Shown here: positions 22,009 to 32,360 of the stretch, piece after piece
How the letters are laid out: every line of letters begins with the position of its first letter
Position numbering within the stretch: the first letter of the stretch is position 1
Source of the DNA: Nitrospirota bacterium
GTDB lineage: Bacteria > Nitrospirota > Thermodesulfovibrionia > Thermodesulfovibrionales > Dissulfurispiraceae
Direction: 5' to 3'
NCBI GenBank assembly: GCA_040758355.1
Contig: JBFLWF010000005.1
Span: forward strand, 1 to 64,000
DNA length: 64,000 bases
The notes under the pieces: model-generated
What the model was told of the DNA's origin: nothing
Database searches by the model: none
What the model saw: only the letters and a program-made list of their open reading frames with translations
Program-made: the position numbers and the translations under genes

Positions 22009-22073
22009 TTGGTGTGTTAATTATGGCATAAAGGACTTATAAATATAAAGCCAACAAATGGGGTGATATTGAT

Positions 22074-22116
22074 AAAAAATTGGAGTAACAGGGTTGCTTT
22101 ACACCCCATTACTCCA
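22074..22116 (-). terminator. probable terminator downstream of the small peptide ORF
   Basis: Minus strand TGGAGTAATGGGG..CCCTGTTACTCCA followed by ATTTTTT. Confidence 0.55.
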
Positions 22117-22143
22117 CCACTCCATTACTCCATTGTTTTTTCT

Positions 22144-22206
22144 TTAGCAGGAACCTTTGCACTTGCAGGTGGTTGACCCTTTCTTGGATACCTTCCTTAT
22201 AACCAT
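22144..22206 (-). CDS. 20-aa Cys-rich peptide MVIRKVSKKGSTTCKCKGSC, candidate radical SAM-modified RiPP precursor
   Basis: Read by hand: GGGAGGT SD 7 nt before ATG 22206, TAA at 22144-22146; 52 nt downstream of the radical SAM/SPASM gene on the same strand. Confidence 0.75.
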   Translation of the reverse strand: MVIRKVSKKGSTTCKCKGSC

Positions 22207-22258
22207 ATCACACACCTCCCTTTCTTAGGGATTAATCATGGCTTCATGCCCTGATATT

Positions 22259-23398
22259 TTATGTTTTCATTATATCATACCCATGGCATTTGTAAAGGTC
22301 TTTTTTTCTGCTGTCTTCGGCGCGAAATCTGCACCCACCCCTGCACTCATCAATGAACCTGCATGATATATCAGAACATTCCAGTTCATCTAATTTTACG
22401 GGCATTATCCTTTGCCATGACTTTCTCAGCCCTTCACTGATATTGCCAACAGGCGTGTGAGAATAAAAGGCGCATTTGCATATGTTCCCATCGGCAAGCG
22501 CTGACATGAGATGCAGGCCGCATGCAAAGCCTTCTCCTCCGCCGTGAAGTCCTCCACCAAAGCCATAATTCAGATATCTTCCAGCTATTTCCGGTGGAAC
22601 CTGAAAAATATGGTTTTCCTTTAAATTGCCAGAAACACACGGCACATCCACTGTCCAGTCCTTGATACCGATTTTTCTAAATATATCATCCATCTCATCG
22701 AATTCATCGATATTCCTGCCATGAACCATTGTAGCTATCGAGACAATAATCCCTGCATCAATTGCTTCGTGAATCTTCTTCATTACTATTTTATATGTGC
22801 CTTTTCCCCTTATTGCCTCATGCCCGCGTTCCATGCCATCAACGCTGAACTGTATTTCATCCGCATTAAGTCCCTTTAAAACTTTTTCATTTAACAAAAG
22901 GCCGTTTGTGAAAAGTATCTTCCTGAAATTATATTCGGGCAATAACAGATTTATTTCATTAAATCGGCTGTGCATCAAAGGCTCCCCTCCTGTTATCAAA
23001 AGGCGCAGTCCCTGCATTTCTTCGAACTCATCAAGAACAATCTTTATTTTATCAGGGGAAATTTCATTATTCTTGGGCTTTCCTATATAACAATGCCCGC
23101 ATTTAAGATTGCACTTATCAGTAATCTGGAGTTCGAGATACCTTAAAGAGGGTGTTGGAGACTTAGTTATTATTGGTCTTTTTACATTAACAGCTTTTTC
23201 GGTCAATATTCCTTCTGATAGGCAAAAATCTATGAATTCTTTATCAGCATATTCAGCTTCAGCGCCTTCGGAAGTACTTTTTTTCAAAAACTCAAAGGCA
23301 TCGTCGTCCAGCTCATAGAGTTCGTCTCCCTTTATATCATAAACCGATGGAGTCTCAAGCCATTTCAGGACAAACCCGTCTGAAAGATAATATCTCAT
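22259..23398 (-). CDS. radical SAM/SPASM enzyme with probable N-terminal PqqD/RRE-like domain
   Basis: CNLKCGHC, ITGGEPL, C-terminal C..DGNICKC..C..C..CRGGCR..C; ~70-aa N-terminal extension (VYDIKGDELYELDDDAFEFLKK..FIDFCLSEGIL). Confidence 0.88.
   Translation of the reverse strand: MRYYLSDGFVLKWLETPSVYDIKGDELYELDDDAFEFLKKSTSEGAEAEYADKEFIDFCLSEGILTEKAVNVKRPIITKSPTPSLRYLELQITDKCNLKCGHCYIGKPKNNEISPDKIKIVLDEFEEMQGLRLLITGGEPLMHSRFNEINLLLPEYNFRKILFTNGLLLNEKVLKGLNADEIQFSVDGMERGHEAIRGKGTYKIVMKKIHEAIDAGIIVSIATMVHGRNIDEFDEMDDIFRKIGIKDWTVDVPCVSGNLKENHIFQVPPEIAGRYLNYGFGGGLHGGGEGFACGLHLMSALADGNICKCAFYSHTPVGNISEGLRKSWQRIMPVKLDELECSDISCRFIDECRGGCRFRAEDSRKKDLYKCHGYDIMKT
22269..22296 (-). promoter_or_regulatory. 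internal sigma70-type promoter for the peptide ORF
   Basis: TTTACA (22291-22296), 16-nt spacer, TGa-TATAAT (22269-22274), inside the radical SAM 3' end. Confidence 0.5.
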
Positions 23399-23461
23399 GG
23401 TTTATTTTAAAAAATTAACAGGCATATTGTCTCCATGTTTGCCAATCTGATAAACTTTTCC

Positions 23462-24937
23462 ATGCTTGATTCTTTAGAAAAAAAAGTTTACCAGCTCATC
23501 ATCATCAGACTTGATGGGGATAACATTCAATCGAAAGACTATCAAAATAAAATATTTAATCTTGTTGAAAAAGGCATTGGCGGCTTTATAATCTTCGGCG
23601 GAGAAATTGACGAGATAAAAAGCTTTATCGGTAAAATCCAATCCATTGCAGAAATACCGCTTTTTATAGCATCCGACATTGAGCGCGGAGTCGGACAGCA
23701 GATAAAAGGCGCAACCAATTTCCCATGCCAGATGGCAGTGGCAGCAGCTATAGATAAAGACAGGCCTGAAGACATATTGCTCCTCAACATAATAATACAG
23801 GCCGTAACAGATGAGGCAACAGATATCGGGATAAACATGCCTTTGATCCCGGTAATGGATGTAAATCAAAATCCAGACAATCCCATAATATGCACAAGGG
23901 CTTTTTCTGACAATCCCAAAACAGTGGCGTGGTTCGGCTCGCACTACATAAAATTCCTCGAAGACTCAGGCTTAATAAGCTGCGCCAAGCACTTTCCGGG
24001 TCATGGAGATACTGCTGTAGATTCTCATATCTCACTTCCTGTCATTAATAAATCCAAAGATGATCTAATGAAAACAGACCTCGTGCCTTTCATTAAATCC
24101 ATCAAAGCAGGCGCTGGCAGCATCATGATCGGACATCTTAAAATCCCTGCATTGGATTCAAAGCCCGCAAGCCTGTCCAAAAAAATAATCACAGATTTAT
24201 TAAAAGAAGAATTGGGCTTTAACGGCCTTGTAATCACGGATGCCTTGAATATGAGCGCCCTCAAAGACTTCGGCAATGTCCCTGTTGAATGCATAAAGGC
24301 AGGCGTTGATATACTGCTTCATCCTGTGAACGCTGATATAACAGTTAAGGAATTATTATCAGCCATTGAGTCCAGAGAGATTAACGAAGGTCAGATTGAC
24401 AGCGCATTAAAGCGCATAATCAGAGCAAAGGAGAGGTTTAGCAAAATCAAAAAGCCCGATGTAAATTACAAAGCCCATGCATTCATCTCAGAACAGATCT
24501 CCGATATGTCTATAACTCTTGTAAAAAGCAGCCCCGGCATATTGCCTATTTCAAAGGATAAGGATGCGAATATTGTATTTGCAGGCGACGATGATATTTA
24601 TAAATCATCTATACTAAAAAATCATTTCAACTCAGAATTCCAAACTCTGAACTCTGAAATGCTAATCATCGCTATATTCACAGGTGTTGCAGCATGGAAG
24701 GGAAGCTCGGGGATAAGCGATAAAGAAAAACAAAGGCTCACAGAGCTTATCAAGCAGGCAAAAAGCTCAATAGTCATCTCATTCGGCAGCCCTTATGTTT
24801 TAAGGTACTTCAACGAGGCCGACGTGCTCATCGCAGCTTATGAGCCTTCAGAGCAGGCGCAAATGGCTGTGATGAAATGCCTGAAGGGAGAAATAGAATT
24901 CAGCGGAAAACTGCCGGTAACAAGGGATAACATTTGA
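23462..24937 (+). CDS. nagZ: beta-N-acetylglucosaminidase, GH3
   Basis: SDIERGVG, KHFPGHGDTAVDSH, ITDALNM; start 23462 or 23435. Confidence 0.9.
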   Translation: MLDSLEKKVYQLIIIRLDGDNIQSKDYQNKIFNLVEKGIGGFIIFGGEIDEIKSFIGKIQSIAEIPLFIASDIERGVGQQIKGATNFPCQMAVAAAIDKDRPEDILLLNIIIQAVTDEATDIGINMPLIPVMDVNQNPDNPIICTRAFSDNPKTVAWFGSHYIKFLEDSGLISCAKHFPGHGDTAVDSHISLPVINKSKDDLMKTDLVPFIKSIKAGAGSIMIGHLKIPALDSKPASLSKKIITDLLKEELGFNGLVITDALNMSALKDFGNVPVECIKAGVDILLHPVNADITVKELLSAIESREINEGQIDSALKRIIRAKERFSKIKKPDVNYKAHAFISEQISDMSITLVKSSPGILPISKDKDANIVFAGDDDIYKSSILKNHFNSEFQTLNSEMLIIAIFTGVAAWKGSSGISDKEKQRLTELIKQAKSSIVISFGSPYVLRYFNEADVLIAAYEPSEQAQMAVMKCLKGEIEFSGKLPVTRDNI

Positions 24938-26157
24938 GCAAATTAACCCCTTACCTACAGGTATTCACCAGCAGGCGGATTGCGGCAGTTACGCTTCTCG
25001 GATTCGCTTCCGGCCTGCCATTGGCGCTCACAAGCGGCACTCTACAGGCATGGATGGCTGTTGACGGAGTGGATATAAGGACCATCGGCATCTTTGCCCT
25101 TGTCGGACTTCCTTATACCGTGAAATTCCTCTGGTCTCCGATGATGGATAGGTTTGTCCCGCCGCTTTTAGGAAGGCGCAGGGGATGGATGATCATTACA
25201 CAGATTGCATTAATATTGGGCATAGCTGCAATGGCCTTTAATTCACCAAAACAAGCCCCTTTGCTCATAGCTGCGTTTGCATTGACAGTAGCCTTCTCCT
25301 CAGCATCTCAGGATATTGTTATCGATGCATACCGCACCGATGTATTGAGAGAAAAGGAGCGAGGTGCAGGCGCCGCAGTCTTCGTCATGGGCTACCGCAT
25401 TGCAATGCTCGTATCCGGCGCGCTGGCTCTTATACTCTCCGATAATATCGGCTGGCATAATACCTATCTGCTCATGGCCGGGTTAATGGCAGTCGGCGTA
25501 ATATCGGCATTTCTTGGCCCTGAGCCCGAAGAGAAAATCATCCCTCCCAAAAGTCTTCAGGAAGCGATTTGGGGGCCATTGAAGGACTATTTTTCGAGAC
25601 GCTCCGCTGTCATGCTGCTGCTTCTAATCATCCTATACAAGCTCGGAGACGCATATGCCGGTTCATTAACCACAGCGTTCCTCATAAAAGGAGTGGGCTT
25701 TACACCCACAGATGTTGGCACTATCAATAAAGGACTCGGCCTCGTATCGCTCATTGTGGGAGCAATGTTCGGAGGAGCACTAATGGCAAGGCTCGGCCTT
25801 TTCAAGTCATTGTTATTTTTCGGGGCGTTGCAGGCAGTATCTAATCTCTCATTCATGGTTCTGGCATGGATTGGAAAAAGCTACGGGATGCTGATTTTTG
25901 CAGTGGCCTTCGAAAATCTTAGCGGAGGCATGGGCACATCAGCCTTTGTAGCACTGCTTATGAGTATGTGCAATCAAAGATACAGCGCAACCCAATACGC
26001 ACTTCTGTCTTCCCTCGCTGCCCTCGGAAGGATCTTCATCGCCCCGACATCTGGATTCATCGTTTCCGCTATCGGCTGGCCAGCCTTCTTTTTTATAACC
26101 ACACTTGCAGCATTGCCAGGATTGGGGCTATTGTGGTGGATGAGGCAAGAAATATAA
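24934..26157 (+). CDS. ampG: muropeptide MFS permease
   Basis: LGFASGLP, KFLWSP.MD, GRRRGW, SASQDIVIDAYR, SATQYALLSS. Confidence 0.93.
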   Translation: MSKLTPYLQVFTSRRIAAVTLLGFASGLPLALTSGTLQAWMAVDGVDIRTIGIFALVGLPYTVKFLWSPMMDRFVPPLLGRRRGWMIITQIALILGIAAMAFNSPKQAPLLIAAFALTVAFSSASQDIVIDAYRTDVLREKERGAGAAVFVMGYRIAMLVSGALALILSDNIGWHNTYLLMAGLMAVGVISAFLGPEPEEKIIPPKSLQEAIWGPLKDYFSRRSAVMLLLLIILYKLGDAYAGSLTTAFLIKGVGFTPTDVGTINKGLGLVSLIVGAMFGGALMARLGLFKSLLFFGALQAVSNLSFMVLAWIGKSYGMLIFAVAFENLSGGMGTSAFVALLMSMCNQRYSATQYALLSSLAALGRIFIAPTSGFIVSAIGWPAFFFITTLAALPGLGLLWWMRQEI

Positions 26158-26161
26158 TCCA

Positions 26162-26878
26162 TTACTTTGGCCTCAATATAACAATTCCGGGCTTATTGGC
26201 AATATAATCTCTAAAATCCTCGTCAACTACTTTTCTCTGAACAGACGAGGCATGACGCAAATAGAATCCCTCGCTATCCTTGATAATAATCCCGACATGC
26301 GAGACATCAAGCCCATGAGCATCCGAATATATTCCTGCATAATCCCCTGTCCTCAATTTGTTCATAGTTGAATCATCAATAGCTACTGAAGGTATGTATT
26401 TAACAACACGCTCTTTGAGATCAATGCCATTTAAAAAATAGGTCCCGTCTTCTTTTGCATTAATCATCTTTTCAACTTTTATTGCATTTTTGCTGCCTAT
26501 TTCCTCTGTAACATCCTCGACAAACTCTGAATTTGATTCCACCCAATCCGTAAAAAAGTGATTCCTATTTTCGAATGCAATCTTTCCTGATTTATACCTT
26601 ACCCTTCTCAAATTCTCCCTAAATTCAGAAAAAGAACTCGACAGCCTCATTGCCTCTATGTAATCTATGAAAGTAAAGCAGTCAACCGCCGAGAGGTTTA
26701 TGACAAAGACCTCAGGCGTTTTAATGTCTCCTATCAAGGTTTTTTCCTGATACGGCAGGCCGAGGAATTTCTCTGAAAGAAAGGCTATCCTCTCTCCTGC
26801 GCCCTGAATTTCTGCGGCTTCGCGCAAAATAGTGCTCAGCCTTTCCTCTGTCCATCTGCCGAAAATGACGGATTCCAT
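26162..26878 (-). CDS. DUF1460 N-acetylmuramoyl-L-alanine amidase-like protein (NlpC/P60 fold)
   Basis: FLGLPY, VDCFTFID, RNHFFTDW, LDVSHVG, RHASS. Confidence 0.8.
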   Translation of the reverse strand: MESVIFGRWTEERLSTILREAAEIQGAGERIAFLSEKFLGLPYQEKTLIGDIKTPEVFVINLSAVDCFTFIDYIEAMRLSSSFSEFRENLRRVRYKSGKIAFENRNHFFTDWVESNSEFVEDVTEEIGSKNAIKVEKMINAKEDGTYFLNGIDLKERVVKYIPSVAIDDSTMNKLRTGDYAGIYSDAHGLDVSHVGIIIKDSEGFYLRHASSVQRKVVDEDFRDYIANKPGIVILRPK

Positions 26879-26990
26879 AAATGCTATAATATCAGAAAGT
26901 AATTAGGCAAAACAGGCACAGTTTCAAAGCCCCCTCTCTTTTCACCCATGCCTGCTTTGCTTCTGTTTAAGGTTGGTTATGAGTACGATT

Positions 26991-27869
26991 ATGAGAAAAG
27001 TCATAGACATCCATACCCATGGCATAGGCGGATATGATACGAGGACAACAGTTGAAGAACATATCCTCCGAATGGCTGAAATACAGGGCTCTCAAGGAGT
27101 TTCCGAAGTCATTCCTACTATATATCCTGCCACTATAAAGGTGATGCGAGAAAATATCATGATGGTCAAAAAGGCAATGGAACTTCAGAAGACAGAGGAC
27201 AGAAGCCAGAAAACAGAAGCAAAAATTATTGGCGTACATCTCGAAGGGCCTTTTCTGAATCCCTCAAAGTGTGGTGCTTTGAATGCAATAACGTTTATTG
27301 AGCCGTCAGAAGATAATTTTAAAGAACTCGTTGAAGGCTTTGAAGATATAATAAAAATCATTACTACTGCACCTGAGATTAACGGCTCAATAAAATTAAT
27401 AAAAAAAATAACTGACATGGGCATAATTGCGAGTATGGGGCACTCAGATGCTACTTATGCCGAGGCAGAGGCTGGTTTTCATGCAGGTGCAGGGGGCATT
27501 ACACATATATTCAATGCAATGAGAGGATTTCATCATAGAGAACCGGGAATTGCAGGCTTTGGGCTTTTAAATCAGGACATTTATATCGAGGTTATTGCAG
27601 ACCCTTATCATTTACACCCCAAAACGCTTGAACTGATATTTAAGACAAAAAATCATGACAGGATTATTATTGTCTCCGATTCTGTAAAAGAGGCAACGCC
27701 ATTCACAAAAAGTCAGGGTGTTACCGATGCTCACGGCAAGCTCTTAGGAGGCTGCATGACAATCGCAGAATCATCAAAAAGGCTTATTGAAATTGGATTT
27801 GATGAAAATATTATAATGAAGTGTATAACAGAAAATCCTGAAAAATATCTAAAGCATGAAAACAATTAA
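26991..27869 (+). CDS. nagA: N-acetylglucosamine-6-phosphate deacetylase (short form)
   Basis: IDIHTHG, GVHLEGPF, TAPE, GHSDA, THIFNAM. Confidence 0.88.
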   Translation: MRKVIDIHTHGIGGYDTRTTVEEHILRMAEIQGSQGVSEVIPTIYPATIKVMRENIMMVKKAMELQKTEDRSQKTEAKIIGVHLEGPFLNPSKCGALNAITFIEPSEDNFKELVEGFEDIIKIITTAPEINGSIKLIKKITDMGIIASMGHSDATYAEAEAGFHAGAGGITHIFNAMRGFHHREPGIAGFGLLNQDIYIEVIADPYHLHPKTLELIFKTKNHDRIIIVSDSVKEATPFTKSQGVTDAHGKLLGGCMTIAESSKRLIEIGFDENIIMKCITENPEKYLKHENN

Positions 27870-29322
27870 ATCAATACTCCAATACTCCATTACTTCAATA
27901 TTCTTACTCCTTACTGTTTTCGGCTGCGCCATTAATCCGGTCACCGGCCAAAGGGAACTGATATTCGTATCCGAGAGTCAGGAAGTGGAGATGGGCAAAG
28001 AGCTTTACCCCAATGCCCTGTGGGGCGACCTCGGAGGTGGCGGAGAGTATAAAGACGAAAAACTCAAGGCTTATCTCAAAGACATTGTTATCAGGATTCA
28101 CAGCGTTTCTCATAGGCCAAACCTTCCTGTTCAGTTCGCAATTCAGAACAGCTCTGTTCCCAATGCATGGGCGATCCCCGGCTATGTAGTAATGACAAGG
28201 GGACTGCTTGCAGCACTCGATAGCGAGGCTGAATTTACATTTATCATGGGACATGAGATGGGGCATGTATCCGCAAGGCATTCTGCAAAACAGATAACCC
28301 GCGGAATGCTGCAACAAATCGGTCTTGGTGCAGCAGGTATTGCCCTCAGTGGAAAGGAATATTCAGACATTGCATTAAGACTGGGGTCTGTAGGAAGCAG
28401 CCTTTTATTGCTGAAATACAGCAGGGACGACGAACTGGAAGCTGACAGACTGGGCATTCTATATACGGCAAAACTCGGTTACAATCCAGAAAATGCTGTA
28501 AGCGCTCACAAGAATTTGGAGAAGATATCGCAGGAATACATGAAATCACTGGGCAAAGACGCCGAGGAGAGGGGATTCTTTGAAGACCTGTTATCCACGC
28601 ATCCGCGAACATCGGTGAGGATCGAAGAAATTCAGCATATGATAAATGAGATGCAGCCATTCGCAGTTACAGGTGACGGGGCCAGTAAGGAAAAATTCCG
28701 GACAGCAGTTTCAGAATTAAAAAATACGAATAAAATCTATCTTGAATATTACGACAGGGCGGTCAGGGCATTTGGAAAAAATAATATTGATGAGGCTGAT
28801 TATCTCGCATCAAAGGCAATAAAGGAAAATCCGAATCAGCCTTCATTTCACGCACTAAAAGGCTTTATAAGGCTAAAGAGAAAGGATTACATCGATGCAG
28901 AAAAATATTTCAATGCTACACTAAATCTCGATAAGGATTACGAACCTGCATTAAGGGGCATGGGCATGATTAGATATTTTAAAGGTGAATATTCAGACAG
29001 TGCAGGCTATCTAAAGAGAAGCATCTCTCTCTTTCCTCAGGACATACCTGCGCATTATTTCCTTGGGATGAGTTATTACAAAATGAGGATGTATAAAACA
29101 GCCATACCGCATCTTAACTTGTTTGCCGAAGTGCAGCCAAGGCATCCGGAAATTCATGGTATATTGGGCATATGCTACGAAAATATAAATGACCTTTATT
29201 CGGCCTACGATGAATATGTCAAGCAGTTAAAGGTCAATCCGACCAATGAGATGGGCAGACATGCTGCATCGAGGATTGGCATACTGAGGCTTATTCTTGA
29301 GGGATCGAGGATAAGGCGGTAG
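27856..29322 (+). CDS. M48 zinc metalloprotease lipoprotein with TPRs (BepA-like)
   Basis: Lipobox VFGC, PNAWAIPG, HEMGH, YSRDDELEAD, STHP. Confidence 0.87.
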   Translation: MKTIKSILQYSITSIFLLLTVFGCAINPVTGQRELIFVSESQEVEMGKELYPNALWGDLGGGGEYKDEKLKAYLKDIVIRIHSVSHRPNLPVQFAIQNSSVPNAWAIPGYVVMTRGLLAALDSEAEFTFIMGHEMGHVSARHSAKQITRGMLQQIGLGAAGIALSGKEYSDIALRLGSVGSSLLLLKYSRDDELEADRLGILYTAKLGYNPENAVSAHKNLEKISQEYMKSLGKDAEERGFFEDLLSTHPRTSVRIEEIQHMINEMQPFAVTGDGASKEKFRTAVSELKNTNKIYLEYYDRAVRAFGKNNIDEADYLASKAIKENPNQPSFHALKGFIRLKRKDYIDAEKYFNATLNLDKDYEPALRGMGMIRYFKGEYSDSAGYLKRSISLFPQDIPAHYFLGMSYYKMRMYKTAIPHLNLFAEVQPRHPEIHGILGICYENINDLYSAYDEYVKQLKVNPTNEMGRHAASRIGILRLILEGSRIRR

Positions 29323-29323
29323 A

Positions 29324-31186
29324 CTAAAGTCTGTCGATAAGCTCGTGCAGCACCGGATATTCCTGCTTTAAAACACTTATGTCTTCCTTCAATAGTCTTA
29401 AGCCTTCAGGAATATGCTTTAAGAAATATTTCTTGCCCTTTACCATAGAAAGAAAACCGTATGCGCCAAGAGCCTGCATATGCCTCTGAATGCGGCATAG
29501 AGGAAGTGACTCAAGAAAATCATTTTCATTGAGTTTGTTTTTCATTTGTTCAAGATAATGCTCAAGCAGTCTTTCACGCATGCCTTCGGCGAGCCTGAAA
29601 TAAGGGTCCCAGAGCATTGATGCAATATCATATGCCGGAGGCCCTATCCTCGCTCCCTGATAATCTATCAGTCTTGGAATGCCTTTTGTAATCATAATAT
29701 TCTGCGACTGGAAGTCGCGGTGGATTACTGTCTTCTGATAAGAATCCGCCTTTTGCGCCAATTTGTGGAATTCTTCATTTAATGCGGATATATTTTCAAT
29801 ATCCACCCTTTTCAACTGTTTCACGAACCTCTCAATAAAATAATCGGTCTCCCATCTGAAATGCTCATAATCAAAGACTCTTTCCTGAAGTAACGGGCAT
29901 TCCGAAATATTTTGAAAGACGCCTGTATGAATCGATACTGCAATATCCATGACCTTTTTGTACATATCTTCTATCTGCTCAGGTTCGCGCGAATATTTAA
30001 GCCAGCTATAAAGCGACAAATCACCGAAGTCTTTAAATAAAGCAGTCATTTCTTCAAAATTGACATCAAGCAATTCAGGGACAGGGATTTTATGCTTTCC
30101 GAAAAATTTTGTGTACTCTATATGCCGATGAAAATCAGGGTCTTCTTTTTTGTATTTCACAAACACAGCAGTCGAATTATCATTCTTCATTCTGTAATAC
30201 TTTCTGTCAGAGCCTCCTGTGCCGATAAGAATTAATCCATTATCTCCGGAAGTGCCGAGCATCTCTGTCTCGTCGAGATTGATCTCAAAATCAGGCCCGA
30301 TTATACAGTTTTCGTATTTTTTTTCTTCAGGCTGGCTGCCCTCAAGCACGATGCAGTTTCTGAAAGAAGATGCATCATCAATAATGCAGCCTTTCTCTAT
30401 AGCGACATAGCCGTCAATTTCGATATCCGGGCAACATCCCATCAATGGATGAATGTATATTGTTTCGCCGTCAGCCCTTAATACATCAATTATTGCAGAG
30501 GCATATGCCTGTGGTGTTCCTATATCATTCCAGTAGCATCCGGTAAAATCGAGTGCCTTTACCTTATGTCCTACCTTTGCTGCCGCAAGCCATGCAACTG
30601 TGGCATGTGAAACTCCTTTGGGCAGAAACTTCAGAATCTCCGGAGAGTAGACCGCAATTCCTGTATATGCGGCTTTTCTACCTGAAGTTTCAGGATTTGG
30701 CATTGAAGTGCCAGGATTCTCGACATCCACGACATATCCCCTTTCATCCAGAACAACATTGTTGTATCTTGGATAATTATGCGTTGCGAGTGTCGCAATA
30801 TTGCCCTCTGAAAGATGTGTTTCTATCAGAAGCAAAAAATCGATGTCAGAGACAATGTCGGAATTGTGCGCAAGGAAGTGTCCTCCTGCAAGAAAGCCTT
30901 CTGCATTCTTCAATGCCCCGCCTGTGCCGAGGATCGGGTCTTCATAAAACAATTCAATGCGCTCTGAGAACGCAGAGTTTCTGGCCCAATCTCTTAACAT
31001 ATCGGCCTTATAATGAAGATTTATGCCTATTCTGCCGGTGGATATCAGAGAGAATTTTTCAATGATGCCCTCTATTAATGGCTTCCCGAGAATCGGAAGC
31101 AAGGGTTTCGGGATGTGATTGGTAATAGGCCTAAGCCTTTCGCCGAGACCAGCGGCAAGAATAAAGGCATTAAGCTTTTTAGTCAT
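29324..31186 (-). CDS. MurU-like nucleotidyltransferase fused to AmgK-like phosphotransferase
   Basis: ILAAGLGERLRPIT..PKPL and WNDIGT; C-half GGSDRKYYR, IHRDFQSQN, LIDYQGA, QRHMQALG. Confidence 0.82.
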   Translation of the reverse strand: MTKKLNAFILAAGLGERLRPITNHIPKPLLPILGKPLIEGIIEKFSLISTGRIGINLHYKADMLRDWARNSAFSERIELFYEDPILGTGGALKNAEGFLAGGHFLAHNSDIVSDIDFLLLIETHLSEGNIATLATHNYPRYNNVVLDERGYVVDVENPGTSMPNPETSGRKAAYTGIAVYSPEILKFLPKGVSHATVAWLAAAKVGHKVKALDFTGCYWNDIGTPQAYASAIIDVLRADGETIYIHPLMGCCPDIEIDGYVAIEKGCIIDDASSFRNCIVLEGSQPEEKKYENCIIGPDFEINLDETEMLGTSGDNGLILIGTGGSDRKYYRMKNDNSTAVFVKYKKEDPDFHRHIEYTKFFGKHKIPVPELLDVNFEEMTALFKDFGDLSLYSWLKYSREPEQIEDMYKKVMDIAVSIHTGVFQNISECPLLQERVFDYEHFRWETDYFIERFVKQLKRVDIENISALNEEFHKLAQKADSYQKTVIHRDFQSQNIMITKGIPRLIDYQGARIGPPAYDIASMLWDPYFRLAEGMRERLLEHYLEQMKNKLNENDFLESLPLCRIQRHMQALGAYGFLSMVKGKKYFLKHIPEGLRLLKEDISVLKQEYPVLHELIDRL

Positions 31187-32360
31187 AAAGCAGATAGGAC
31201 TTCCTTTTATTTTTTGCAAATAAATAGCACTCCTCGCTCCACCACTTCTCCATCCTATCGAGAGCTACACCGTTTTCTATATCATTCCTGAGCCTGTCGC
31301 TCCCTGCGAGTATGTCTATCGGCATCTTTATTGTCTCATACTCATAAGGAGGTTTCTTCCATTGGAATTCACTCGGATAAAGGTCATGCACAGCCTTGAT
31401 TATCGCCACGCCGGTTTTGAAAGGTTTGAACTTCTCCCTGTTTGTTACATGTATCTGTGCGCCTCCGCATAGTTTGCCCGCATGTTTTTGGAATGTGGGC
31501 TGAAAATACACGGGTCTGAAAATTACTCCCGATAGTTTAAATTCATTCAGCCGCTTAACAAGCTTATCTGGTTCTATAAACGGAGCACCAAAAATCTCAA
31601 ACGGCCTTGTAGTTCCCCTCCCCTCGCTAAGCATGGTTCCTTCAAGAAGGCACATGCCGGGATACACAACGGCAGTGTCTAATATCGGCATATTTGGAGA
31701 CGGTAGAACCCAAGGAAGTTCGGTATCATCAAACCACATCTTGCGCTTCCATCCATTCATAGAAATAATATGCAAATCTAAAGATGGATAAAGTTCATTT
31801 CTCAAATAATTGCCTATCTCGCCAATGGTCATGCCGTGTCTGACAGGAAGTGGCCTTTGCCCCACAAATGATGCATAATTCACATCAAGCACAGGGCCTT
31901 CGGTAATATGCCCTCCAATCGGGTTCGGCCTGTCAAGGATAACAACCGACTTATTATTCTCAAGACACGCCTGCATACAAAGCTCCATTGTCCATATAAA
32001 TGTGTAGTAGCGGGAGCCCACATCCTGCATGTCTATTGCCATAATATCGATATCCTTCAGCATTTCAGGTTCAGGTTTTCTTGCATGTCCATAAAGGCTG
32101 TAAACAGGAAGGCCTGTTTTTTTATCTGTAAAACCCTCCCATTCAATCATGTTGTCCTGGGTTTCTCCCCTGATTCCGTGCTGGGGGCCGAAGAATGCAT
32201 TTAATTGAAACTTCTTCGATTTCAATGCAAAGTCTGCTGCATGCTCAAGTTTTTTATTAACAGAAGCAGGATGCACCACAAGCCCCACCCTTGCGCCTTT
32301 CAATTGCTTCGGCCAATGTTTCTCAAGTTTGTCCAATCCAGTTAATATCGATTTAGCCAT
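31179..32360 (-). CDS. namZ: exo-beta-N-acetylmuramidase NamZ (DUF1343)
   Basis: FGPQHG, VYSLYG, DMQDVGSRYYT, LDRPNPIG, RHGMTIGE, SEGRGTTRPFE. Confidence 0.9.
   Translation of the reverse strand: MAKSILTGLDKLEKHWPKQLKGARVGLVVHPASVNKKLEHAADFALKSKKFQLNAFFGPQHGIRGETQDNMIEWEGFTDKKTGLPVYSLYGHARKPEPEMLKDIDIMAIDMQDVGSRYYTFIWTMELCMQACLENNKSVVILDRPNPIGGHITEGPVLDVNYASFVGQRPLPVRHGMTIGEIGNYLRNELYPSLDLHIISMNGWKRKMWFDDTELPWVLPSPNMPILDTAVVYPGMCLLEGTMLSEGRGTTRPFEIFGAPFIEPDKLVKRLNEFKLSGVIFRPVYFQPTFQKHAGKLCGGAQIHVTNREKFKPFKTGVAIIKAVHDLYPSEFQWKKPPYEYETIKMPIDILAGSDRLRNDIENGVALDRMEKWWSEECYLFAKNKRKSYLLYD

Follow-up and report, generated by a model that had tools for sequence, protein, structure and literature searches.

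Analysis of a 64,000-nucleotide stretch of a Nitrospirota genome (assembly GCA_040758355.1, contig JBFLWF010000005.1, positions 1 to 64,000; hereafter the window) revealed that a 20-codon open reading frame next to a radical SAM enzyme gene is a real, conserved and unannotated gene, and that the enzyme, the peptide and a third, cysteine-containing protein are common to anaerobic bacteria and archaea, a hairpin RNA leader likewise recurring in the bacteria. Judging from the sequences, the peptide is very probably the substrate of the enzyme. The explanation that we propose, and to which we give an even chance, is an undescribed RiPP of anaerobes, composed of three proteins and an RNA element, in which Cys-to-alpha-carbon thioethers would be installed in the core of a peptide that stays inside the cell. 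The features concerned are the following:

22259..23398, minus strand: radical SAM enzyme of 379 residues, RRE-like at about residues 1–75, with CxxxCxxC at residues 96–103 and SPASM cysteines C293, C309, C341, C346, C352, C356 and C371
22269..22296, minus strand: sigma70-type promoter, TTTACA-16-TATAAT with extended -10 (TG), within the last codons of the enzyme gene
22235..22255, minus strand: distal leader hairpin with an AUGAA loop, weak here (three pairs, a mismatch, four pairs), with covariation over 35 homologues
22217..22231, minus strand: proximal leader hairpin with an AAGAA loop, its 3′ arm being the first four bases of the ribosome-binding site
22214..22220, minus strand: Shine-Dalgarno sequence GGGAGGT, 7 nt before the ATG
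22144..22206, minus strand: 20-residue precursor ORF, with a basic leader (residues 1–13) and the core C14-K-C16-x-x-x-C20
22081..22116, minus strand: intrinsic terminator-like hairpin of 14 pairs and a T tract

The original prediction, made from the DNA letters of the window, described a short cysteine-rich precursor beside a radical SAM/SPASM enzyme, and its description of the gene holds in every detail. The 20 codons run from 22206 to 22144 with the proposed sequence, 52 nt from the enzyme stop codon at 22259, and the GGGAGGT element lies at 22220–22214 with a 7-nt gap to the ATG. The promoter motif (22296–22269) scores 11 of 12, tied for the highest value among 18 promoter-like sites between 21000 and 24500, and the hairpin followed by a U-tract (22116–22081) has a z-score of -4.0, none of 200 shuffles being equally stable. 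Two 15-nt direct repeats are found at 22102–22132, one of which is an arm of this terminator. The predicted lack of a precursor family is borne out, the peptide reaching no family in either NCBIfam or Pfam. A likeness to ribosomal protein bL36 was rejected as Pfam gave no match, and scanning this genome revealed no second member of the peptide family. Of 15 full-length homologue loci, whose titles read Thermodesulfovibrionales, Nitrospirota or uncultured bacterium, 13 have the conserved short ORF expected beside homologous enzymes, placed 3′ of the enzyme.

Across 401 genomes of the window's phylum the enzyme is present in 162, with one match apiece. A degenerate 26-nt pattern of the peptide 3′ end (the strict pattern) matched 139 genomes, always once, while the reversed control pattern matched none; 137 genomes contained both genes, 2 only the peptide and 237 neither. 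Among the 25 enzyme-only genomes, a search for adjacent variants in the 18 with coordinates recovered a peptide in 6, and a relaxed pattern did so in 12 of the 19 others, bringing the peptide, variants included, to 155 of the 162 enzyme genomes. Strict and variant patterns gave no peptide in the remaining 7, four of which are at least 98% complete, and no small ORF with a ribosome site was seen at seven other inspected relaxed-pattern matches or at locus L155. Coordinates were available for 132 genomes, of which 109 have the two genes side by side and 23 keep both but unlinked (a few of these maybe due to contig breaks). In the family to which the window belongs, enzyme, peptide and third protein are missing together from the same 3 of 34 genomes, kin not being independent observations. 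Two peptide copies occur in one locus (L277:848 and L277:1014) and in one genome (G020, at L154 and L166); the gene is otherwise single-copy.

A profile search placed the enzyme in a distinct family that includes a protein named Methanosarcinales archaeon. It was found in 8 of 221 genomes of the phylum that contains a Methanotrichaceae archaeon (G401; L025), in 30 of 251 of the phylum of Pelotalea (G402; L048) and in 14 of 151 of the phylum of a Promethearchaeota archaeon (G404; L020). The peptide lies within 1.5 kb of the enzyme in all 8 archaeal loci of the first phylum and in 27 of the 30 loci of the second, which is bacterial, and the gene order in both is mostly peptide, third protein, enzyme. 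In the phylum containing Promethearchaeota the examined flanks showed a peptide at 6 of 14 loci, several of the other 8 ending at contig edges. At three archaeal loci (L297–L299) two half-length copies of the third protein are placed directly 3′ of the enzyme, and in L297 and L299 the peptide is divergent upstream.

The enzyme matches Pfam family PF04055 (E 5.6e-22) and no other in Pfam. The CxxxCxxC motif and the cysteine-rich SPASM-type C-terminus that had been proposed are both there, as C96, C100 and C103, invariant in sets of 38 and of 43 sequences, and as seven C-terminal cysteines. These seven are kept in 42–43 of 43 diverse members and are spaced C293-X10-G304-X4-C309...C341-X4-C346-X5-C352-X3-C356-X14-C371, with no conserved eighth (C254 in 19 of 43). 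This arrangement agrees with the seven-cysteine SPASM motif CX9-15GX4C...CX2CX5CX3C...C (PMC6231123, of which excerpts were available), the X2 spacer being X4 here and X1–X4 in the family. The SPASM family PF13186 gave no match to the enzyme at E up to 1; the alignments of the structure model with SuiB, CteB and anSME nonetheless extend over their SPASM domains. None of the best 25 of 70 curated families reaches its cut-off (the best, 82 bits against 650). The nearest paralogue in this genome, an AhbD-like heme synthase on contig C55 (L307:2811-3941; 454 bits against a cut-off of 500), is outside this system. Since there are seven SPASM cysteines and no eighth, auxiliary cluster I should have three Cys ligands as in CteB (scheme in the excerpts of PMC6231123), and the sequence would fit a cluster with an open iron site, as described for that enzyme; His296, present in 40 of 43 members, could be a fourth ligand.

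The predicted structure (pLDDT 83) has its best matches in SkfB, SuiB and CteB. Its N-terminus forms four strands followed by helices (residues 1–62, pLDDT 81–94). SuiB is the best fold match (Z 25.6–25.9, rmsd 3.8, 359 of 379 residues aligned) and SkfB follows closely (Z 25.1). The alignment with SuiB starts at residue 2, so the N-terminal domain overlays the SuiB RRE. Residues 1–80 are nearest to PqqD-bearing clusters (feature score 0.90, with 25% of the members PqqD; TM 0.64 to a PqqD chaperone cluster), a score at the level of a lead, and Pfam PqqD has no sequence match in the N-terminus. The RRE-like extension, for which a PqqD-like fold had been the test, is thus supported by the predicted structure, the SuiB alignment and the nearest clusters. 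The six positions defined by catalytic proximity (PMC10288494, excerpts), mapped by hand with the mapping checked on CteB, read Y-T-F-S-A-F in this enzyme, Y-T-F-S-Q-L in SkfB, F-F-T-S-H-Q in CteB and Y-S-L-S-G-F in the wider enzyme family. By this manual mapping four of six residues are identical to SkfB, three to StsB, one to CteB and one to PqqE, the Y, S/T and S being common in SPASM enzymes; the profile is no more than suggestive of a position nearer the sactisynthases SkfB and StsB than CteB or PqqE.

The 110 distinct peptides collected from bacteria and archaea begin with M-x-I-[KR]-K-[VI], continue with variable residues and end in a core at positions 14–20; they have 19–20 residues and three cysteines. 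The search pattern pre-set the leader spacing and the cysteine positions and left residue 15 free. In the 116 cores counted, to which three archaeal core types (L255/L256, L297 and L299) do not belong and from which the pattern can miss variants, Lys15 is found in 115; position 19 is Ser in 105, Gly in 5, Thr in 3 and Asp in 3, and positions 17–19 are variable and may all be Gly. No side-chain acceptor other than Lys15 is fixed in the core, which is nearly invariant inside large clades and single-copy. The 13-residue leader is free of cysteine and constant in length across the 110 peptides, a spacing set beforehand by the pattern. Three archaeal precursors (L253, L301 and L303) carry one leader followed by three tandem C-K-C-x-x-x-C cores; a single residue separates the third core from the preceding one in L301 and L303. 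On the evidence of these precursors, the seven-residue C-K-C-x-x-x-C is most likely what is modified as a unit; the residues ahead of it would be dispensable as acceptors, and a free C-terminus is probably unnecessary. The original prediction had Cys14, Cys16 and Cys20 crosslinked to residues in GSTTCKCKGSC; acceptors among the Gly-Ser-Thr-Thr residues ahead of the core are not supported, given that positions 10–13 vary freely in the 110 peptides and that cores stand one residue apart in two archaeal precursors.

The third protein (about 105 residues, with seven invariant cysteines) is present in 156 of the 401 genomes, 150 of them among the 162 with the enzyme. It is fused to the N-terminus of the enzyme in 5 representatives and 4 loci and lies directly upstream of it in many other loci, and some lineages have it at half length; here the gene is unlinked, on contig C1 of this genome (L252:2246-2557). 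No Pfam or NCBIfam family was found among 19 members and Foldseek returned no match to its fold (best VIA hit at Z 3.0), which does not prove a new fold; its Atlas neighbours are clusters without names. A predicted complex of the enzyme and the third protein scored 0.00 against a mark of 0.32, a result that counts neither for nor against a partnership.

The extended -10 box upstream of the peptide is encoded by the conserved Y-[GD]-I-[IM] at the C-terminus of the enzyme homologues, and occurs in 33 of the 39 distinct loci where a peptide is adjacent versus none of the 13 where it is not. A promoter inside the end of the enzyme gene that tracks the adjacent peptide suggests that the peptide gene is probably transcribed separately, as a short mRNA of its own. 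Metatranscriptome contigs from four runs, compared with a stand-alone peptide locus (L143), cover the gene in X2, X3 and X4 and not in X8; strand, level and ends are not readable from contigs, which may also derive from DNA.

Hairpins lie between promoter and start codon in the peptide mRNA leader, one to three in number; their loops read A-[UAC]-G-A-A, in some cases AGAA, and the last hairpin usually pairs with the ribosome site. At least one such hairpin was seen in 45 of the 90 distinct loci that were scanned (shuffles: mean 3.0, maximum 7), a set that stands apart from the loci of the wider-phylum searches. For covariation, 36 loci were chosen by loop sequence and position alone and 35 retained, L002 being identical here to L001. 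In this set 93.4% of the cells are paired and 77 double-sided changes occur versus 26 in shuffles (0 of 500 reaching this number), with double-sided changes in five of the six pairs of the distal stem, and the structure exceeds all slid controls in pairing and covariation score; kin are not independent, so these shuffle counts are not probabilities. Stems that vary around a fixed loop point to an RNA element and not a DNA operator. In genus g21 the unlinked peptide genes each retain a -10 box, and three hairpins are seen in most of them. In Rfam the leader had no match at gathering score (the best of four matches, all far below, at 18 bits). No other such tandem pair of hairpins was found in this genome, and a hairpin regulon within it was rejected for this reason. 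CsrA-type sites have an ANGGA loop and ANTAR-type sites a hexaloop with A1 and G4; both were rejected because neither fits ANGAA pentaloops.

In the mechanism that we propose for the undescribed RiPP, the alternating hydrophobic and basic N-terminus of the leader (M-x-I-x-K-V) would add a strand to the RRE of the enzyme, a core cysteine would coordinate auxiliary cluster I at its open iron, and hydrogen abstraction by the deoxyadenosyl radical from a backbone alpha carbon inside the seven-residue core would lead to sulfur-to-alpha-carbon thioethers, between one and three in number, each with a change of -2 Da. The third protein may be a metal- or Fe-S-binding partner of the enzyme. A protein with affinity for the tandem A-N-G-A-A hairpins would set the translation of the precursor, and the product, instead of being an antibiotic, would remain intracellular with a housekeeping role in metal binding or signalling. 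Direct contact between substrate and cluster is described for thioether maturases (PMC10177961, excerpts). The bond formed is somewhat favoured to be a thioether, for which an alpha carbon of the core is the likeliest partner. Against the alpha-carbon reading, the core leaves no room for the nested hairpin that known sactipeptides have, and the near-invariant Lys15 is left unexplained.

The system works like CteA–CteB or SkfA–SkfB yet belongs to neither family. With the SCIFF or thermocellin pairs of Clostridia (CteA–CteB, Tte1186a–Tte1186) it shares an RRE-radical SAM-SPASM enzyme with seven SPASM cysteines, a small cysteine-rich precursor and a wide clade-level spread that speaks against an antibiotic role (PMC8326336, excerpts). 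However, the SCIFF precursor has about 45 residues and 6 cysteines versus 20 and 3 here, there is no fixed Asp, Glu, Thr or Asn acceptor at a set spacing from the cysteines as in SCIFFs and other ranthipeptides, and the system differs from CteB in its proximity residues (a single match of six), its additional Cys protein, its RNA leader and its archaeal members. The earlier SCIFF/ranthipeptide label consequently fails on size, number of cysteines and acceptor residue. SkfB is the top PDB sequence match to the enzyme (E 1.3e-29) and its top Foldseek match, but has a twitch domain and acts with a 55-mer precursor (PMC6231123, excerpts); the StsB model scores the enzyme 56 against a cut-off of 625. 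StsA uses Gly alpha carbons (PMC10288494, excerpts), and the core here can have Gly at 17–19. Taken as a whole, the original interpretation stands for the conserved precursor-like ORF, the RRE-like N-terminus and the SPASM maturase and is not supported for the Gly-Ser-Thr-Thr crosslinks and the SCIFF label. Not part of it were the third Cys protein, the RNA leader with its hairpins, the embedding of the promoter in the enzyme gene and the archaeal range.

It is possible, although we doubt it, that the same substrate undergoes another chemistry, either an SbtM-like oxidation of cysteine to thiooxazole or a link between a cysteine and the Lys15 side chain, and gives a copper- or metal-binding peptide. 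The only fixed residues in the 116 cores are the three cysteines and Lys15, so the reacting atoms may be theirs. SuiB, the closest fold, abstracts from Lys. SuiB/StrB, which forms the Lys-Trp crosslink of streptide, resembles this enzyme in fold, the position of the RRE included, and its substrate has a conserved core Lys; it differs in that its auxiliary cluster I is fully ligated by a linker Cys (PMC6231123, excerpts), whereas no eighth Cys is conserved here, in its 16% identity and in the aromatic residue that the present core does not have. SbtM, also a SPASM enzyme of anaerobes acting on peptide cysteines, makes thiooxazole (PMC9204691, excerpts), and thiooxazole peptides give copper protection (PMC11626156, excerpts); but SbtM needs a Gly-Cys/Sec motif that is unconserved in the 116 cores, its GGUG/selenocysteine motif is absent, and its model scores the enzyme 50 against a cut-off of 350.

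It seems unlikely that the peptide is an unmodified mini-metallothionein, or a carrier of metal or sulfur for the enzyme or the third protein, and that the true substrate is the third protein or a small molecule. The tandem Gly-rich repeats of L253, L301 and L303 presumably resemble metallothioneins, and Pfam returned no metallothionein or other match for the window peptide. CKCxxxC and CxCxxxC occur in metallothionein papers (in the excerpts retrieved), which is a likeness of motif only. SPASM enzymes can crosslink Cys-rich proteins, as CrpC does with CrpA (PMC13692751, excerpts), and the third protein has its seven invariant cysteines. CrpC/CrpA (TIGR04463, methanogens) likewise combines an archaeal SPASM enzyme and an RRE with a leader and repeated Cys motifs, according to those excerpts; CrpA differs in its length of at least 100 residues and its CxxQ/D motifs, and no CKCK or CKCG string was found in three of its supplements. 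Against the carrier stand the Cys-free leader of fixed length (subject to the pre-set spacing of the pattern) and the RRE of the enzyme, the architecture of one leader with repeated cores, which is that of RiPPs, and the fusions of the third protein to the enzyme in several lineages, which fit a partner better than a substrate.

Quite unlikely, too, is an exported signal or bacteriocin processed by an unlinked protease and transporter, as in the quorum-sensing proposal for SCIFFs, which a review lists as quorum-sensing molecules (PMC8326336, excerpts). A separate promoter and a regulated leader would suit a signal, but the near-invariant, single-copy core is unlike diversifying signals and toxins, the downstream gene differs between loci (judged from ORF starts, with BLAST for the TPR and enzyme genes only), and the neighbours are peptidoglycan-recycling and housekeeping genes. 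As the original prediction had noted, no protease or exporter is co-transcribed at the locus. Upstream, a GH3/NagZ-like gene (23435–24937) on the plus strand is divergent from the enzyme and opens a peptidoglycan-recycling block on the opposite strand (23435–32360) with GH3 NagZ-like, AmpG, NagA-like, M48/TPR peptidase and MurU-like/AmgK-like fusion (29324–31219) genes, in which 26162–26878 and 31179–32360 had no NCBIfam match; its M48 peptidase and AmpG transporter were rejected as protease and exporter of the system because they belong to this other-strand block. The enzyme and GH3 genes stand head to head with 36 nt between their starts (23398–23435), so that their promoters must overlap each other's coding regions. 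Elsewhere in this genome, contig C33 carries the mercury-methylation genes hgcA and hgcB (L306:4756-5975, minus strand), both above NCBIfam cut-offs, followed by an ArsR-type regulator and an unannotated 38-residue ORF (L306:2889-3005) that has four alternating Cys-Gly and is preceded by a strong ribosome site. A repeated element in at least 14 places of this genome, often at contig ends, contains the same 12-codon Cys-rich reading and is probably the end of an insertion sequence.

Downstream of the peptide are TPR, ispE and tRNA-Gln, beyond which we take three genes, from their sequences, to be prs, rplY and pth. That the peptide is a regulatory leader (attenuator) of this TPR-ispE-tRNA-prs-rplY-pth block, unrelated to the enzyme, is very improbable: a terminator does follow its stop codon, and genus g21 retains the peptide in front of the TPR gene with the enzyme elsewhere, yet the peptide is followed by the TPR gene in no more than 31 of 90 loci, which largely excludes the idea, while the enzyme precedes in 64 of 90, other phyla place the peptide upstream of the third protein and the enzyme, peptide presence tracks the enzyme across genomes, and a promoter-like site at 22049–22020 belongs to the TPR gene itself.

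No description of the system was found in the literature searched, chiefly open-access text, with most subscription papers and bioRxiv supplements outside the search. In that text no paper contained CKCKGSC or CKCKSSC (matches to TCKCK were irrelevant) and none combined radical SAM, SPASM, Nitrospir and precursor peptide. The Precord 2023 spreadsheet (3,421 precursors) held no matching peptide; its enzyme sheet consists of UniProt ids only, among which these enzymes may be.

In a broader version of the proposed reading, which we regard as rather unlikely, strict anaerobes ranging from Thermodesulfovibrionia to Promethearchaeota-related archaea would share an ancient housekeeping pathway, whose SPASM enzyme and Cys protein would convert C-K-C-x-x-x-C, by way of its fixed Lys, into a new intracellular metal-binding or cofactor-like molecule, a protein of its own controlling translation through the hairpin RNA. 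As it stands, the system represents a RiPP family that is not yet curated and whose precursor is among the shortest. Most genomes of a large anaerobic clade have it in single copy, and its archaeal members are of note since few RiPPs have been described in archaea. The natural tandem-core precursors define the minimal substrate, so that the chemistry is open to a direct test with one enzyme and a 20-mer, and an RNA motif controlling a RiPP precursor at its ribosome site would be unusual.
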